This document shows, in pieces, positions 10,326 to 14,953 of a DNA stretch of 15,090 nt (the stretch's first letter is position 1; every line of letters starts with the position of its first letter). Source of the DNA: a virus. Its lineage: Duplodnaviria > Heunggongvirae > Uroviricota > Caudoviricetes. The notes under the pieces were generated by a model that saw only the letters and a list, made by a program, of their open reading frames with translations, did not search any database and was not told the origin of the DNA. Location of the stretch: IMG/VR virus record IMGVR_UViG_2778261639_000008, positions 1 to 15,090 of that record; one strand, written 5' to 3'. The position numbers and the translations under genes were made by a program.

Positions 10326-11684
10326 ATGGCGAATTTAAGCAGGCTTTTTAGTGTGAAAATTGGACGGCAAACAACAGCCGCCCAATATGGCGTTTTCGGT
10401 GTGGGGATTATCCTTGCACCGGGCGCAGCGTTTTTTGGTTTGAAGTATTCGACCTATGAAAGCGCAAAAGTAGAAAATTTCAAAGACCTGTACCGGGTTT
10501 ACACCAGTGCTGATGATGCGATTTCTGACGGCGTGAGTGGTGATAACCTGCTGGCGGTTCAGGCTTATTTCTCGCAGAGTCCATCACCAGACACACTCGT
10601 TGTAGGCGATTTTTCCGCAGCCTACAGCAAGGCCATGATTAAATTGACTGATGTTCCGGTTGTTGGTGCTCCAGCGGGCATAAAAGCGACCATTGGCTAT
10701 GTAAAGGGCGATGAATATCGTTATGCGAAATTTAACGGCACTGCATGGTCAGGAAGCACAGGGGTAGCGACTGATATCGTTGCTGATTCTGGCGCAGCAG
10801 GTCAGTTTCTTGTCGATGGGCGCATTGTTTATCTGGAAGGTGCGGAAGTCGTTCACAAATCATCTGTCGTACTGTCGGCGGCAGCTAGCCAGGCAATTGC
10901 AGCCATAAAGAACCAGTATAACAAGTTCTTCATGCTCATGACCCCATCACGCGACCTTTCAATTCAGAAAGTGATTGCTGACTGGACTGAATCGCAGATT
11001 GATAAAATGGCAGTATTTATTGATGACTATTCATCGCCAACATGGGCGACGGACAACATCACTAAATATATCTTTGAAAAAAATATTGCAGGTTCGTTTG
11101 CAGTATCAACCAAACGAGAAAAGAACTTCCTTGATGCTGCTCTGGCTGGTCGCTGTCTGGTTATGCAACCGGGCTCAGAAACATGGGCGCTTAAGACGCT
11201 TAATGCTGTACAAGCCGATGACTTTACCGAAACTGATTACCAGAAAATCAAGGCACTCAACGGTAACACGTTTGAGGATTACGGTTCCGGCATCACGGTA
11301 ACTTATCCGGGTACGTGTGGTGACGGTGAGTCGATTGAGGTTGTGCGCTTTGCTTACTGGCAGGCTGACCGCATGCAAAAAGACCTCGCAACGCTCTTTG
11401 TGAACCGTAACAAAGTTGGTCACGACATGCCGGGGTATGAAGTCGTTTGTAACAAAATGGAAAGCTCGCTTAAAGCAGGTCAGACTGCTGGCGGTATTCT
11501 GGAAAACTTTACCGACGAAAACGGAGATTATGTCCGTGGATATGAGGTTATCCGTCCAACAATGGCAGAAGTCAGCGCGACCCAGCGCATCAAAGGCGAC
11601 CTGACCGTTAAATTCAGATTCTATCTTCGCTACGCCATCAAGCATGTAGATGCTGTTGGTTCCGCACTGACCTACGGGATTTAA
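10326..11684 (+). CDS. Putative tail sheath protein
   Basis: 452-aa ORF immediately upstream of a ~140-aa tube-sized gene, a chaperone and the tape measure gene: the canonical contractile-tail order. Possibly DUF3383-type, not verified. Confidence 0.65.
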   Translation: MANLSRLFSVKIGRQTTAAQYGVFGVGIILAPGAAFFGLKYSTYESAKVENFKDLYRVYTSADDAISDGVSGDNLLAVQAYFSQSPSPDTLVVGDFSAAYSKAMIKLTDVPVVGAPAGIKATIGYVKGDEYRYAKFNGTAWSGSTGVATDIVADSGAAGQFLVDGRIVYLEGAEVVHKSSVVLSAAASQAIAAIKNQYNKFFMLMTPSRDLSIQKVIADWTESQIDKMAVFIDDYSSPTWATDNITKYIFEKNIAGSFAVSTKREKNFLDAALAGRCLVMQPGSETWALKTLNAVQADDFTETDYQKIKALNGNTFEDYGSGITVTYPGTCGDGESIEVVRFAYWQADRMQKDLATLFVNRNKVGHDMPGYEVVCNKMESSLKAGQTAGGILENFTDENGDYVRGYEVIRPTMAEVSATQRIKGDLTVKFRFYLRYAIKHVDAVGSALTYGI

Positions 11685-11686
11685 TT

Positions 11687-12115
11687 ATGTATTTAGGCAA
11701 TATGTCCTCAAAAGACTGGCTGATTACCGTAGGCGTTGTCCCGGTAATTGGCCTGGCGAAAGACAGCAACATCATCGTTGAAGTACCAGACGACCAGATT
11801 ACTGTTTCATCTGGCATCGGCGGTGACTGGTCATTTATTGAGAATCCTAGCGAGGAAGGCTCAGTAACATTCACCACGCAGCGTAATTCCCCGGTAAATA
11901 CCGCGCTGGCGCTGATGCAAAAAACAAAGGCCGTCATCCCTGTAACCGTAACCAATACGCGCAATCTTTCCGTGCACCGGCTGGGCTATGCGATGTTTGC
12001 CCGTCAGCCGTCTGATGGTGCAAATAACGGCGTCGGAGCGCAAACGCTGGAATGGAAACTCCTGACGGGTGAGCTTGATTCAACGATTCTTGGGGTGAAT
12101 TTAACCAATGGATGA
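11687..12115 (+). CDS. Putative tail tube protein
   Basis: 142-aa ORF between the sheath and chaperone genes; size and position fit a tube protein. Confidence 0.6.
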   Translation: MYLGNMSSKDWLITVGVVPVIGLAKDSNIIVEVPDDQITVSSGIGGDWSFIENPSEEGSVTFTTQRNSPVNTALALMQKTKAVIPVTVTNTRNLSVHRLGYAMFARQPSDGANNGVGAQTLEWKLLTGELDSTILGVNLTNG

Positions 12116-12593
12116 TTCAATCAAACACGTAGAAATTAACGGGCAAAAATACTGCATCATCCGTATGAGCGCCTTTGATGCAGTTCACTTCAACTTGCGT
12201 GTAGCTGAAATTCTGGCGAAACATGGTATCAGCCAGGTAGAAAGCATCCTTTCTATGTCGTCGAAAATCTTCGGTATGCTCAACCGCGAAGACCACGACG
12301 AATTGCTGTTTACGCTGCTTTCAAAGTCACGCGCCCAACTGGTGGATAACGGCGAATTTCTGGATTCTTGGGATGTAGTTAACACCAATTTCACCGCAGC
12401 AAACATTGCTGATGTGTATCTGGTGGCGCTTGAGTGCCTTAAATTGTCCATTCTTCCGGTAACAGCAGGGTTAAAAAAAAATATTGGGCTGGACACAGCG
12501 GCAACAATGCAGGGAGCCATGCGGCAACTGTTCAACGCCTTGCTGAAAACCTTGACCGAACCATCCGCACAGAGCTCGTCATCTGGCGAGTGA
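12108..12593 (+). CDS. Tail assembly chaperone, short (G-like) form
   Basis: 161-aa ORF immediately upstream of the tape measure gene, overlapping the tube gene stop. Contains the A9 slippery run at 12473-12481. Confidence 0.65.
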   Translation: MDDSIKHVEINGQKYCIIRMSAFDAVHFNLRVAEILAKHGISQVESILSMSSKIFGMLNREDHDELLFTLLSKSRAQLVDNGEFLDSWDVVNTNFTAANIADVYLVALECLKLSILPVTAGLKKNIGLDTAATMQGAMRQLFNALLKTLTEPSAQSSSSGE

Positions 12594-12724
12594 TTGAAAG
12601 CGGCCTGATTAGCTACGATGCCGTAGCGTCAGGCCGCGCCTCCTTCGATTCCATTATGAGAGCCTCCGCCGTTATCCAGTTCGATAACGCGGTTCAACAC
12701 GCGCTTAGTAAGGTGAAAAAATGA
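12108..12724 (+). CDS. Tail assembly chaperone, predicted -1 frameshift (GT-like) extended form
   Basis: The -1 frame is open from 12443 to the TGA at 12722-12724 with no start codon near its 5' end, and it is entered exactly at the A AAA AAA heptamer within the A9 run (12473-12481). The extension reads ...YWAGHSGNNAGSHAATVQRLAENLDRTIRTELVIWRVIESGLISYDAVASGRASFDSIMRASAVIQFDNAVQHALSKVKK and ends overlapping the tape measure ATG at 12721. Confidence 0.55.
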
Positions 12725-14676
12725 CAGACCAGTCAGCCGATCTCGTAACGAAAATTGACGTAATCCCCGAACTGGAGGGATTAAACAGTTTTGACGCAGC
12801 CATAGAGCGCGCAATTGCCAAAGTAAACCAGCTTGACGCAGCCATTAAGCGCGTTAACAACCTGAAACCCGCCAGCCCATATGCGCCAGCCAGTACCGCC
12901 AGTGCGCCATCTGTAGCAACAACGGCAGCAGTAGCGACAATAGCCGCCACAGGCGCAAATCTGGTTAGCCGGACGCCATTAGCCGATACAGTTAGAAAAG
13001 AGGCTCAGAAGCTCGCACGTGCAGCCGTAGAGGGTGCGGGGAATGGCGTTGCCGGATTATTACCGCCACCAGTACGTCAATTTGCTGGTGGAGGAGGTGG
13101 TTTAATGTTGCCACCTCCGGGCGGAGCTAATTGGTCTGCTGGTCGTGCTGGTGGTTTAGTCGATCCAAATGCCGGTAATCCATTTACCCGATACGATACA
13201 TCTATCAAAAGTTTCTCCGGGGAAGCGCTGGAGGCAAAAAAGAAACCTGTTGCAGAGGGTGCAGAGAAAGCGACACGCAATCCATTTGGTGTTGATAGCA
13301 TGCTGGCTGGCGCGGGGCTGACGGCGGGTATTGTCGCCGCTGGTAATGCTCTGGCAGACAGCCTTGACTCTATCCAACGCCAACAGGCACAAATTGCGCG
13401 TCTGGCACAGACTACAGGGGATGCAAAAGAGGCATTTTTTGCCCTTAACGCGGCGGCAAGCGACGTTAGAAGCGACAGCGGGGCGTTTATCTCCACCTAT
13501 ACGAATATGGCGACAGCAACACAAAAATTAGGGTTGTCGCAGGAAAGAACAATAACCGCAACACAGGGGCTTGTTGGGGCGCTGCAATTAGGCGGGGGCA
13601 GTGCTGATGCAGTAAATGCAGCGCTTTATCAAATGGGGCAGGCATTTTCATCAGACCGTTTCGGCGGCGATGAATTCCGCTCATTCATGGAAGCGATAGG
13701 GACGATGGCACCGAAAGTAGCTGAGGCGTTTGGTACAGACGTTAAAGGACTCCGCGAAATGTCAGAAAAAGGGAAGCTGACCTCAGAAACCATGATTAAA
13801 GCCTTTGAAAAGCTGGCGGCGAGCAACATAGATTTGTTGAAAAAACAGGGCTGGACGTGGGGGCAGACAATGACAGTCATGAAAAATGACTGGCAAGCCT
13901 TCTTAGCTCAGGCAACCATCGGCGGCGAGTGGCAAAAATTTACCGATTGGGCGGCAAATACCTTAATTCCACTGGCGAGGAAAGCCGAGAAAGAAGTTGC
14001 AGAGTTTTGGTCTACCCTGGCTGATGAAAGTAAAACAGCTATTCTCATTGGGATTCTTGGCGCTGTTGGCGCGGCATTTACCGCGCTGGCAGTTCCGGTT
14101 ATGGCGGCGCTTTGGCCTTTCCTCGCCATTGGCGCGGCTGTCTGGCTGGTCTATGAGGCTTTTGTTGAGTGGAAAGCTTGGTTGAATGGTGAAGGTGGAA
14201 CCATCTTTGATAGCTTATTCGGTAGTTTTGATGAATTTGAAAAGCGTTATCCAAATTTAATATCTGCTCTCAGAACTATTGTTAAATTAGCAAGCAAAGC
14301 AGCGATAAGCGTTAATTCTGCGACAAAAGACGATGAAAGTGATGGTGTTTTCATTGATGCGATTGAAAGTCCGTTGTCAGCAGTGGTTAATGGCTTATAT
14401 AACTTAACACCATTAGCCCCCACAGTTAGAGCGCTAAGTGGGTTAAATGATATGTTTGACCTGAATCCTCTACCGGGCATAGAAAACACACTAGGTTTAA
14501 TGCCTTCTTCCTCAACTACAGGGAGTCAGACCATTAGCAATAGTGGTAATAAGACTACGCACATTCATGTTAACAGTGGTAAGGAAGCCGCTGAAACTTT
14601 GAATAATATCAATGATACAGGAAACACCTACGGGAATATTGATGGTAATATTGCAGAATCGACAGGCGCGAGATAA
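12721..14676 (+). CDS. Tail tape measure protein
   Basis: 651-aa ORF downstream of the chaperone pair, with a tape-measure-type core (ATQGLVGALQLGGGSADAVNAALYQMGQAFSSDRFGGDEFRSFMEAIG), Ala/Gly/Pro-rich low-complexity N-terminal linkers, and an internal hydrophobic segment (ILIGILGAVGAAFTALAVPVMAALWPFLAIGAAVWLVY). Confidence 0.85.
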   Translation: MTDQSADLVTKIDVIPELEGLNSFDAAIERAIAKVNQLDAAIKRVNNLKPASPYAPASTASAPSVATTAAVATIAATGANLVSRTPLADTVRKEAQKLARAAVEGAGNGVAGLLPPPVRQFAGGGGGLMLPPPGGANWSAGRAGGLVDPNAGNPFTRYDTSIKSFSGEALEAKKKPVAEGAEKATRNPFGVDSMLAGAGLTAGIVAAGNALADSLDSIQRQQAQIARLAQTTGDAKEAFFALNAAASDVRSDSGAFISTYTNMATATQKLGLSQERTITATQGLVGALQLGGGSADAVNAALYQMGQAFSSDRFGGDEFRSFMEAIGTMAPKVAEAFGTDVKGLREMSEKGKLTSETMIKAFEKLAASNIDLLKKQGWTWGQTMTVMKNDWQAFLAQATIGGEWQKFTDWAANTLIPLARKAEKEVAEFWSTLADESKTAILIGILGAVGAAFTALAVPVMAALWPFLAIGAAVWLVYEAFVEWKAWLNGEGGTIFDSLFGSFDEFEKRYPNLISALRTIVKLASKAAISVNSATKDDESDGVFIDAIESPLSAVVNGLYNLTPLAPTVRALSGLNDMFDLNPLPGIENTLGLMPSSSTTGSQTISNSGNKTTHIHVNSGKEAAETLNNINDTGNTYGNIDGNIAESTGAR

Positions 14677-14686
14677 GGAATAAGCG

Positions 14687-14953
14687 ATGCCAAAAAATGA
14701 ATTTAAAAGCTTTGCAACATTCGAAACATTGATTACGCCAAAAATCATTACGATTGTATATTGGCTTGCCACGATACTACTTATCGTAGGTACTATTCTA
14801 AGCTGGTTGCAGCAGAGAGAAGGGGTAAGTATTAGCTTTGCTGTGTCACTTGTCGCAACAAGAGTTATTTTTGAGTTGATTATGGTTTCATTCAAGAATA
14901 ATGAATACCTTCGTAGAATCTGTGAGGCAGCAGAGGAAAAGAAAACAGAGTAG
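14687..14953 (+). CDS. Small two-transmembrane-helix membrane protein (moron; DUF4282-like)
   Basis: 88-aa ORF with AAGGAA 6 nt upstream of ATG 14687. Two hydrophobic helices (IITIVYWLATILLIVGTILSWL and VSISFAVSLVATRVIFELIMVSF) and a charged C-terminus. The FETLITPKIITIVYWL ... RVIFELIMVSF pattern resembles what I recall of DUF4282, unverified. Lies in an AT-rich block and is followed by a terminator. Confidence 0.6.
   Translation: MPKNEFKSFATFETLITPKIITIVYWLATILLIVGTILSWLQQREGVSISFAVSLVATRVIFELIMVSFKNNEYLRRICEAAEEKKTE

Follow-up and report, generated by a model that had tools for sequence, protein, structure and literature searches.

In tailed phages, growth of the tail tube stops once the N-terminus of the tape measure protein (TMP) is reached. 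Mosaic exchange of modules between tailed-phage genomes is an established concept, and TMPs are moreover targeted by superinfection-exclusion proteins such as TP-J34 Ltp and HK97 gp15. A model of TMP evolution by "units, duplications and losses" was reportedly put forward by Belcaid et al. in 2011. In lambda and TP901-1, TMP length was found to set tail length, deletions leading to proportionally shorter tails (PMC5099701). The TMP of TP901-1 carries 11/18-residue aromatic repeats that were proposed to facilitate duplication and deletion (Mahony et al. 2016, PMC5099701). Finally, the C-terminus of the TMP was located at the needle or tip, and a probable TMP density was observed below the neck (PMC11948020).

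The gene described here lies in a 15,090-nt stretch of phage DNA, hereafter the window, in which two low-complexity tracts had been noticed. The preferred reading, to which a probability of about 60% is given, is that this TMP carries, ahead of the TMP_3 core, a lineage-specific N-terminal extension that holds a fixed Ala/Thr element and a probably disordered and indel-tolerant Gly/Pro hinge.

Identity and surroundings of the tape measure gene

The genes that define the locus are the following.

10326-11684: sheath gene, recognized by Pfam/PHROG, upstream of the TMP gene
11687-12115: tube gene, recognized by Pfam/PHROG, upstream of the TMP gene
12108-12593, plus strand: tail assembly chaperone (Pfam Phage_TAC_15), probably extended to 12721 by a -1 frameshift
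12721-14676, plus strand: TMP gene, 651 aa, with Pfam TMP_3 and PHROG matches
13354-13911, plus strand: TMP_3 core domain (Pfam PF20155), aa 212-397 of the TMP

The TMP_3 domain was detected with 123.2 bits for a cutoff of 41 (E 1.4e-35), and 18 PHROG tape measure families also match the protein, with E values down to 8.5e-33. In the same way, an E. coli protein that is 100% identical to this TMP bears the name tape measure protein in its source. The order of sheath, tube, frameshifting chaperone and TMP is the one expected for a tape measure gene. The chaperone contains an A9 slippery run (12473-12482) that is kept in all four homologous loci compared (L001-L004). From 12443 onwards, its -1 frame contains no stop before a TGA at 12722-12724, and this codon shares bases with the ATG of the TMP at 12721. 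A Shine-Dalgarno-like motif, AAGGTG, is found 5' of this ATG.

The TMP belongs to an enterobacterial contractile-tail prophage. A megablast search against 50,697 GenBank phage records found no close relative, and in a tblastn search against GenBank phages only the TMP core was matched, with less than 37% identity. Many contigs of ~21 kb suggested a minimal element devoid of baseplate and fibre genes, a possibility that was rejected: the prophage is larger than ~21 kb, since in chromosomal loci the terminase is preceded by genes for a Collar tail fibre, fibre assembly, ERF and a nuclease.

The N-terminal extension and its Ala/Thr tract

The standard TMP_3 core is preceded by an extension of ~190 residues that, judging from database coverage, is lineage-specific. 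Residues 1-210 were matched by only 8 cluster-50 representatives among 1.84 billion proteins, and the PHROG TMP profiles start to match at query aa 173-200, that is at profile position ~50-70. The extension would be built of a helix, the Ala/Thr tract, a charged helix and the Gly/Pro hinge, in this order.

12721-12867, plus strand: aa 1-49, a conserved segment predicted to be helical, with which the extension starts
12868-12966, plus strand: Ala/Thr(/Ser/Pro) tract of fixed length, aa 50-82
12967-13035, plus strand: aa 83-105, a charged and conserved segment predicted to be helical, ending at the left recombination breakpoint
13036-13284, plus strand: hypervariable hinge, aa 106-188, made of the Gly/Pro tract (aa 113-145) and a variable flank

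In aa 1-49, column entropy is 0.01-0.27 and dN/dS 0-0.03, and this segment is still recognizable in a relative with 43% identity (P0127). In the charged segment, R84, T85, L87, A88, T90, V91, R92, E94, Q96 and K97 are invariant. An AlphaFold2 model obtained from an 18-sequence alignment has a mean pLDDT of 31.3 and a pTM of 0.17 and cannot separate order from disorder. In this low-confidence model (pLDDT ~31 throughout), DSSP assigned a helix to aa 24-46, essentially coil to aa 108-178 with a three-residue H at 162-164, and mostly helix to aa 194-534; a helix was also predicted at aa 65-82. Further downstream, Kyte-Doolittle peaks of 2.37 and 2.08 at aa 440-475 would correspond to a pair of strongly hydrophobic helices.

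Both tracts had been placed at the TMP N-terminus, between 12880 and 13160, and their peptides are indeed encoded with exact matches in the 651-aa protein, the given range being correct to within ~10 nt. The Ala/Thr peptide, ASPYAPASTASAPSVATTAAVATIAATGANL, occupies aa 51-81 (nt 12871-12963), and the Gly/Pro peptide, LLPPPVRQFAGGGGGLMLPPPGGANWSAGRAGG, aa 113-145 (nt 13057-13155). Their compositional bias is likewise real. When the Shannon entropy of 4027 30-aa segments from 15 long plus-strand ORFs of the whole window was scanned (mean 3.57 bits, sd 0.21), the Ala/Thr tract with 2.49 bits and the Gly/Pro tract with 2.79 bits were the two lowest-complexity stretches. Values as low as those of the tracts were reached in 0.2% of 2000 shuffles of the TMP sequence, and neither the A+T+S+P content of the Ala/Thr tract (25/31 residues) nor the G+P content of the Gly/Pro tract (17/33 residues) was reached in any of 2000 such shuffles.

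The original prediction regarded both tracts as linker-like regions, either flexible spacers that would set tail length or sites prone to slippage and length variation between related phages. For the Ala/Thr tract, the idea of a variable spacer was contradicted. The distance from K49 to R84 is 36 residues in 22/22 alleles, representing about 110 homologues, and no indel was found in aa 1-110 among 120 homologues. Comparisons between loci place the tract under purifying selection: its nucleotide sequence is 100% identical to that of two Citrobacter forms of 685 and 700 aa (L001 and L004), and its dN/dS is ~0.2 against the more distant L002 and L003. The motifs at its ends, KPASPYAP and GANL (G78/N80/L81), do not vary within the close family, and parts of them can still be recognized at 43% identity. 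The tract is devoid of charged residues and has a Kyte-Doolittle 19-aa mean of 1.37. Its first part (aa 50-64) is uncharged and PAS-like, and its second part (aa 65-82) is rich in small residues and moderately hydrophobic. The tract is a constrained structural element rather than a free spacer, in which a short connector of the PAS-like type probably leads into a helix of small residues packing against other chains.

Length variation in the Gly/Pro hinge

When homologues were aligned, as the original prediction had advised with the remark that an invariant and structured region would speak against it, the Gly/Pro region was found to vary, in contrast to the Ala/Thr tract. The expected length variation between related phages thus applies to the Gly/Pro tract only, which is an ordinary hinge varying in length. 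Among 120 homologues, the segment aa 111-187, which includes this tract and ~45 residues after it, is the only indel site in the N-terminal 520 residues. The hinge occurs as 53 alleles of 60-136 aa with a G+P content of 23-42%, and the total length of the TMP among relatives is 627-702 aa. In none of the alleles is the reading frame lost before the conserved C-terminus, from which it follows that the hinge region is translated.

Across these alignments, the composition of the hinge is conserved without its sequence. For instance, a relative with 66% identity (P0123) has a hinge of 136 aa and 42% G+P whose sequence is different. The hinge, the TMP segment in which dN is highest, is still under some sequence constraint, since its dN/dS is 0.2-0.45 and not ~1. 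The motifs WSAGRAGG and NPF are present in most hinge alleles. A second variable segment, located at the TMP C-terminus, behaves like the hinge.

Three processes were shown, by the comparison of alleles, to vary the hinge, namely gain and loss of units, slippage by ±1 codon and replacement of cassettes by recombination. The unit is degenerate and comprises two hydrophobic residues, PPP, 3-6 residues and a Gly run. Units are irregular, Gly/Pro-rich and ~14-22 aa long, and their number ranges from 1 to 4: the Klebsiella form has one, the window two, P0121 three, and L001 and L002 have 3-4. In L002, a duplication of 14-15 codons was observed that has diverged at synonymous sites.

Slippage had also been suggested for the tracts. 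It accounts for ±1-codon changes, which were seen in relatives only, and fails as the sole cause of the large differences. Near-identical Klebsiella-type genes carry (CCG)2, (CCG)3 or (CCG)4, and the Gly-codon run differs by one codon. In the window, the codons are interrupted (CCG CCA CCA and GGT GGA GGA GGT GGT) and form no perfect trinucleotide repeat; TRF detected no tandem array in its Gly/Pro tract and reported only a trivial array of 9 nt x 2.5. A simple-sequence contingency (phase-variable) locus was rejected in view of these interrupted runs, of the mere (CCG)2-4 of the relatives and of changes that stay in frame.

The large differences are of another kind. Nucleotide identity of the hinge to L001 and L004 is 52-58%, compared with 97-100% on either side, and dS reaches 0.8-1.0 versus 0.03-0.17 outside, both the drop in identity and the jump in dS being confined to aa 101-180. 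The BLASTN alignments to L001, L004 and L002 all end at window position 13035, with gaps at 13036-13131 for L001 and 13036-13235 for L004. Hinge sub-cassettes were also found in different combinations among alleles. The raised synonymous divergence of the replaced cassettes indicates recombination as the origin of the large differences. Whole sub-cassettes have been swapped by homologous recombination between related prophages through their conserved flanks.

The Gly/Pro codons have further consequences at the nucleic acid level and on the opposite strand.

13063-13155, plus strand: nested inverted repeats (I2, I4) with RNA/DNA hairpin potential, formed by Pro (CCN) and Gly (GGN) codons
13077-13496, minus strand: antisense ORF of 139 aa, judged spurious
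13156-13524, minus strand: antisense ORF of 122 aa, judged spurious

The hairpin has a minimum free energy of -57.8 kcal/mol, with a z of -4.5 against dinucleotide shuffles, and is the most stable 132-nt fold of the TMP gene. Nevertheless, this significance vanishes against synonymous recoding, and a selected RNA structure in the tract was rejected. Recoding with synonymous codons gives folds that are as stable or more so (z +0.97 and -1.44), and the native L002 sequence folds worse than its own recodings (z +3.1). The hairpin thus arises from coding, as a by-product of CCN/GGN complementarity, which may in turn favour slippage and template switching. Concerning the antisense ORFs, the original view that they are spurious was upheld and their status as real genes rejected. 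After synonymous-codon shuffling of the TMP gene, the longest antisense ORF averages 161 aa and reaches 139 aa in 62% of the shuffles, and no conservation of antisense ORF position or length was found among the four homologous loci. The Gly/Pro tract is overlapped only by their 3' ends, most of their length lying over TMP aa 145-268.

Possible roles of the hinge and comparison with known systems

In the preferred reading, the Gly/Pro hinge is most likely an intrinsically disordered segment in which selection would act on composition and flexibility and not on exact sequence or length, which is proposed as the reason why it tolerates and accumulates in-frame indels. The ruler core may be joined by the hinge to an N-terminal module that would lie near the head and is likely to interact with the tail terminator or the chaperone, and hinge length may affect tail length little or not at all.

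An alternative is that the hinge is part of the ruler, the forms of 627-702 aa setting different tail lengths and the indels being adaptive tuning. The lambda and TP901-1 precedents are in line with such a role, as are the end of tube growth at the TMP N-terminus and the existence of 651-, 685- and 700-aa forms within tail modules that are otherwise 95-97% identical. However, a Gly/Pro-rich sequence is not expected to adopt an extended alpha-helix (~1.5 Å per residue), in agreement with the lack of predicted helix in the low-confidence model at aa 108-178, and single-codon indels and cassette swaps without conserved periodicity do not resemble tuning by the rise of a tube ring. This role is considered unlikely.

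More doubtful is the proposal that the hinge is the target of an arms race, for example with superinfection exclusion or defence systems recognizing the ejected TMP, and that its diversity is kept by diversifying selection. TMPs are known targets of this kind, dN peaks in the hinge, and prophages of Enterobacteriaceae that live together carry many alleles in shuffled combinations. Yet hinge dN/dS stays below 1, and dS is raised alongside dN, which speaks for imported sequence of older origin and not for positive selection at the site itself. Moreover, no defence gene was linked to hinge alleles, and the similar behaviour of the C-terminal variable segment suggests general mosaicism. A bolder reading, in which the ~190-aa extension would be an undescribed functional module, perhaps a head-proximal plug or ejected effector arm, with hinge cassettes that tune tail length or help the phage to escape superinfection exclusion where Klebsiella, Citrobacter and E. 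coli prophages reside together, is considered a distinct long shot.

The tract could also act at the level of nucleic acid or translation, either its hairpin or an EF-P-dependent pause at PPP/PPG letting the chaperone bind an aggregation-prone nascent TMP. The stability of the fold and the presence of PPP in most hinge alleles led to this proposal, which is very improbable given the behaviour of the synonymous recodings, that of L002 included. In addition, PPP is lost in natural variants (LLLPPR, LLLPTP) and absent from P0127, and an essential EF-P/polyproline pause was rejected on account of the variants without PPP.

Finally, the suggestion that the tracts are untranslated, the start being mis-called and the true TMP beginning near a core that starts only at ~aa 190-212, with non-coding or antisense-coding DNA and its long antisense ORFs ahead of it, can hardly be credited in the face of an open frame, 53/53 indel alleles in frame, a dN/dS of ~0-0.03 in aa 1-49, the AAGGTG before the ATG, a chaperone -1 frame that closes just within the start codon of the TMP, and antisense ORFs that are expected by chance and lack conservation. 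An internal start at M194 was also discarded, as this residue is not conserved and is replaced by Val (GTT) in L002.

The locus has little importance beyond annotation, where it is a normal TMP gene whose antisense ORFs should not be called genes. Within this prophage family, the 627-702 aa differences in TMP length come almost entirely from one short hinge and, the hinge being probably non-helical, TMP length is not directly convertible to a predicted tail length. The locus further offers a small and clear case in which unit duplication, trinucleotide slippage and intragenic cassette recombination have all affected one short coding segment, and it illustrates how Pro/Gly codon complementarity yields strong hairpins without selection for them.

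Compared with other TMP_3-type TMPs, the protein shares the core, the position after sheath, tube and frameshifting chaperone, and probably the predicted hydrophobic helix pair at aa 440-475. Its nearest solved relative is the tail tape measure protein gp18 (PDB 9occ_M, profile E 4.8e-13), with which only the core aligns (query profile positions 151-364 to gp18 residues 26-244). In 9occ_M and most PHROG TMPs, the core begins within ~25-70 residues of the N-terminus, whereas here it comes after the ~190-aa extension.

As in TP901-1-type rulers, a repeated TMP unit is gained or lost between relatives and changes protein length. However, the hinge units are Gly/Pro-rich, irregular in length, predicted to be non-helical and without Trp/Phe periodicity, no TP901-1-type tandem repeat of 11/18 residues marked by Trp/Phe having been found in the hinge. 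They also sit in an N-terminal hinge, while those of the TP901-1 type belong to the helical ruler body. The (CCG)2/3/4 and one-codon Gly-run differences between otherwise near-identical genes are those of trinucleotide SSR slippage, but repeat numbers are very low (2-4), the codons of the window itself are interrupted, and the changes, being in frame, cause no ON/OFF phase variation. In the same way, the sharp breakpoints beside near-identical sequence, the raised dS in the cassette and the recombined sub-cassettes are those of phage mosaicism, although the usual mosaic module is a gene or domain and the unit exchanged here is intragenic and only ~100-200 nt long.

Gene order and identity of the tape measure protein

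The window covers the late structural genes of a prophage with a contractile tail, all of them on the plus strand:

near the left end, plus strand: Terminase_3-family gene and portal gene (labels from the gene calls in homologous loci)
10326-11684, plus strand: sheath (PHROG tail sheath, DUF3383 / E217_gp31_N)
11687-12115, plus strand: tube
12108-12593, plus strand: tail assembly chaperone (Phage_TAC_15)
12721-14676, plus strand: tape measure ORF, 651 aa (Pfam TMP_3 and PHROG)
12871-12963, plus strand: Ala/Thr string, aa 51-81 in the tape measure translation
13057-13155, plus strand: Gly/Pro string, aa 113-145 in the same translation
14687-14953, plus strand: DUF4282 protein, 88 aa (phrog_12129, a membrane-protein-like family match)

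The tape measure protein (TMP) matches Pfam TMP_3 at aa 212-397 (E 1.4e-35) and 18 PHROG tape measure families. Between the chaperone stop at 12593 and the TMP start at 12721, 127 nt look unoccupied but are covered by the chaperone -1 frame, which stays open from position 12443 as far as the TGA (12722-12724) that overlaps the TMP ATG. A slippery A9 run at 12473-12482 (canonical A AAA AAA / A AAA AAT heptamers) is kept in the homologous prophage loci L001-L004, and the chaperone extension is probably a classic G/GT-type programmed -1 frameshift.

No close GenBank phage was found by Megablast, and tblastn against GenBank phages matched the TMP core alone at <37% identity. A related locus was present in just 3 of 5426 complete E. 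coli genomes (~78-83% identity). In a large protein collection, one E. coli protein was 100% identical to the TMP; homologues encoded by prophages of Citrobacter, Klebsiella, Raoultella and E. coli were numerous, with lengths of 627, 628, 629, 649-652, 657, 673, 674, 684, 685 and 700 aa. When aa 1-210 alone were searched with HMMER against 1.84 billion cluster representatives, just 8 matches were obtained. In the same way, the nearest solved TMP (PDB 9occ_M) aligns over the core alone (query 151-364 to its residues 26-244), and PHROG matching begins at about query aa 173-200, profile position ~50-70. The protein is thus a standard TMP_3 tape measure protein whose first ~190 residues form a lineage-specific N-terminal extension.

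The DUF4282 protein lies directly 3' of the TMP gene and is present in all homologous loci; in L001, L003 and L004 it is followed by Dit-like, Pam3_gp18-like, holin, lysozyme, DUF2514 and host genes. Upstream of the terminase, L005-L007 carry a tail fibre (Collar), a fibre assembly protein, an ERF recombinase and a RecA-dependent nuclease. Typical baseplate wedge genes did not turn up in these downstream and upstream stretches. Many contigs bearing homologues are ~21 kb in size. L006 (GCA_028757565.1, 15433-15966) is an otherwise identical prophage copy in which the genes between major capsid and chaperone (head-tail connectors, terminator, sheath and most of tube) are missing, and is probably a deleted, defective derivative. 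In L001 (Citrobacter freundii AP028317.1), secretin and Zot-like genes on the minus strand (11911-14058), which are inovirus-like assembly genes, adjoin the prophage end.

A fixed Ala/Thr tract and a variable Gly/Pro segment

Both low-complexity strings of the original prediction were found in the TMP translation, and their compositional bias was borne out. Among the 30-residue windows of the 15 long ORFs (mean entropy 3.57 ± 0.21 bits), they have the two lowest values, 2.49 bits for Ala/Thr and 2.79 bits for Gly/Pro. The minimum was reached in 0.2% of shuffles of the TMP sequence, which never attained the observed G+P and A+T+S+P counts. The proposal that both tracts are prone to slippage and length variation holds for the Gly/Pro tract and fails for the Ala/Thr tract.

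Aligning 120 homologues shows aa 1-110 to be free of indels, and the K49-R84 interval measures exactly 36 residues in 22 of 22 alleles. KPASPYAP, A66, A70, A72, A75, A76, G78, N80 and L81 are invariant in 18 representatives, and LKPA..Y.P and GANLV.R persist in a homologue of 43% identity (P0127). The tract nucleotides are 100% identical to those of the 685- and 700-aa Citrobacter forms, with a dN/dS of ~0.2 against more distant forms. The tract is devoid of charged residues; aa 64-82 make up the third most hydrophobic 19-residue window of the TMP (Kyte-Doolittle mean 1.37), and a low-confidence model predicts a helix in its second half. We read it as a constrained element, a PAS-like connector followed by a small-residue helix, and not as a variable spacer.

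N-terminal indels are all confined to aa 111-187, that is the Gly/Pro tract and its downstream flank (the putative hinge). The G105-F189 interval exists in 53 alleles of 60-136 residues and is the source of almost the entire spread in TMP length. All alleles keep the reading frame as far as the conserved C-terminus, so the region is translated. Hinge variation comes from gain and loss of repeat units, codon slippage and cassette recombination. The degenerate unit, in which two hydrophobic residues and PPP are followed by 3-6 residues and then 3-6 consecutive Gly, occurs once in the Klebsiella form, twice in the window, three times in the homologue P0121 and 3-4 times in L001 and L002. L002 contains an evident duplication of 14-15 codons, QRLLSGGGLMIPPS / PRLLSGGGGGGMLPPQ, whose copies have diverged at synonymous sites and which is therefore not recent.

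Slippage, also anticipated by the original prediction, is supported in otherwise near-identical Klebsiella-type genes by (CCG)2, (CCG)3 or (CCG)4 and by a one-codon difference in the GGN run, changes that produce the 627-, 628- and 629-aa forms. The codon runs of the window are interrupted (CCG CCA CCA; GGT GGA GGA GGT GGT; CCA CCT CCG) and no tandem array was reported there by TRF, so that its allele is expected to be comparatively stable. Consistent with this, proteins of 96-100% identity display only point substitutions in the hinge region, with 0 indels.

Window and L001 share 96.8% identity over 6.3 kb up to 13035 and 94.5% from 13132 on, while 13036-13131 is unalignable (96 nt versus 198 nt in L001); with L004, alignment is lost over 13036-13235. 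Within the break the sequences are 52-58% identical at the nucleotide level, and dS there is 0.8-1.0, versus 0.03-0.17 in the flanks. The raised dS implies a common ancestor older than that of the flanks, and hence a segment that was imported rather than merely fast-evolving in place. Alleles are differing combinations of at least four sub-segments:

sub-segment 1: DKISIP...EFGG, present or absent
sub-segment 2: PPP/Gly units
sub-segment 3: DPNAGNPF..KSF, DPQSLRRRPF..SRF or a 39-aa alternative
sub-segment 4: SGEALEAKKKP.. or SGTQLTPTAEAV..GGGGFK

Near the TMP C-terminus (~14281-14520, aa ~521-600) lies another variable, mosaic stretch, marked by indels and high column entropy, where some homologues (P0029, P0030, P0069 and P0108) have quite different sequence.

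RNA folding and antisense reading frames

Complementarity between the CCN codons of Pro and the GGN codons of Gly gives the Gly/Pro tract nested inverted repeats. No other 132-nt window of the TMP gene folds as stably as its RNA (MFE -57.8 kcal/mol; z -4.5 relative to dinucleotide shuffles). Synonymous recodings of the same peptide fold equally well or better (z +0.97 when codons are sampled by usage, -1.44 when they are permuted), and native L002 folds less stably than its own recodings (z +3.1). The hairpin is thus a by-product of the peptide sequence and not a selected structure. It may nonetheless favour slippage or template switching.

Two antisense frames were ascribed to the tracts:

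13077-13496, minus strand: antisense ORF (ORF listing)
13156-13524, minus strand: antisense ORF (ORF listing)

Shuffling synonymous codons within the TMP gene yields a longest antisense ORF averaging 161 ± 53 aa, and 62% of shuffles reach 139 aa; in L001-L004 such frames differ in position and length, L003 having none at the site. The two window frames were rightly called spurious and rejected as genes, although they lie mostly over aa 145-268 instead of the tracts.

Proposed function and comparison with known systems

The TMP C-terminus resides in the tip or needle, and tube growth stops at its N-terminal end, near the terminator. The C-terminal placement is consistent with PMC11948020. The conserved aa 1-105, Ala/Thr element included, would make up a head-proximal module that has a specific partner, joined to the TMP_3 core by the Gly/Pro segment as a flexible hinge. 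The latter would be constrained weakly and for composition only, hence its tolerance of indels. We give this reading a probability of roughly 0.6. The AlphaFold2 model has a pLDDT of ~31 throughout the TMP, too low to be informative.

That the hinge is part of the ruler, its alleles differing in tail length, seems unlikely. Still less probable is diversifying selection on the hinge driven by exclusion or defence systems, which finds no support in its dN/dS of 0.2-0.45. A role of the tract in translational pausing or through RNA structure is very improbable, being contradicted by the comparison of hinge alleles and by the recoded folds. Finally, a mis-called TMP start can practically be dismissed given the dN/dS values, the hinge allele set and the chaperone -1 frame.

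Both trinucleotide slippage and mosaicism among phages are long-established processes, and the tract finding is real but ordinary. In phage TP901-1, gain and loss of TMP repeats and their proposed role in easing length change have already been described (PMC5099701); the units found here differ from those repeats in being Gly/Pro-rich, non-periodic and N-terminally located.
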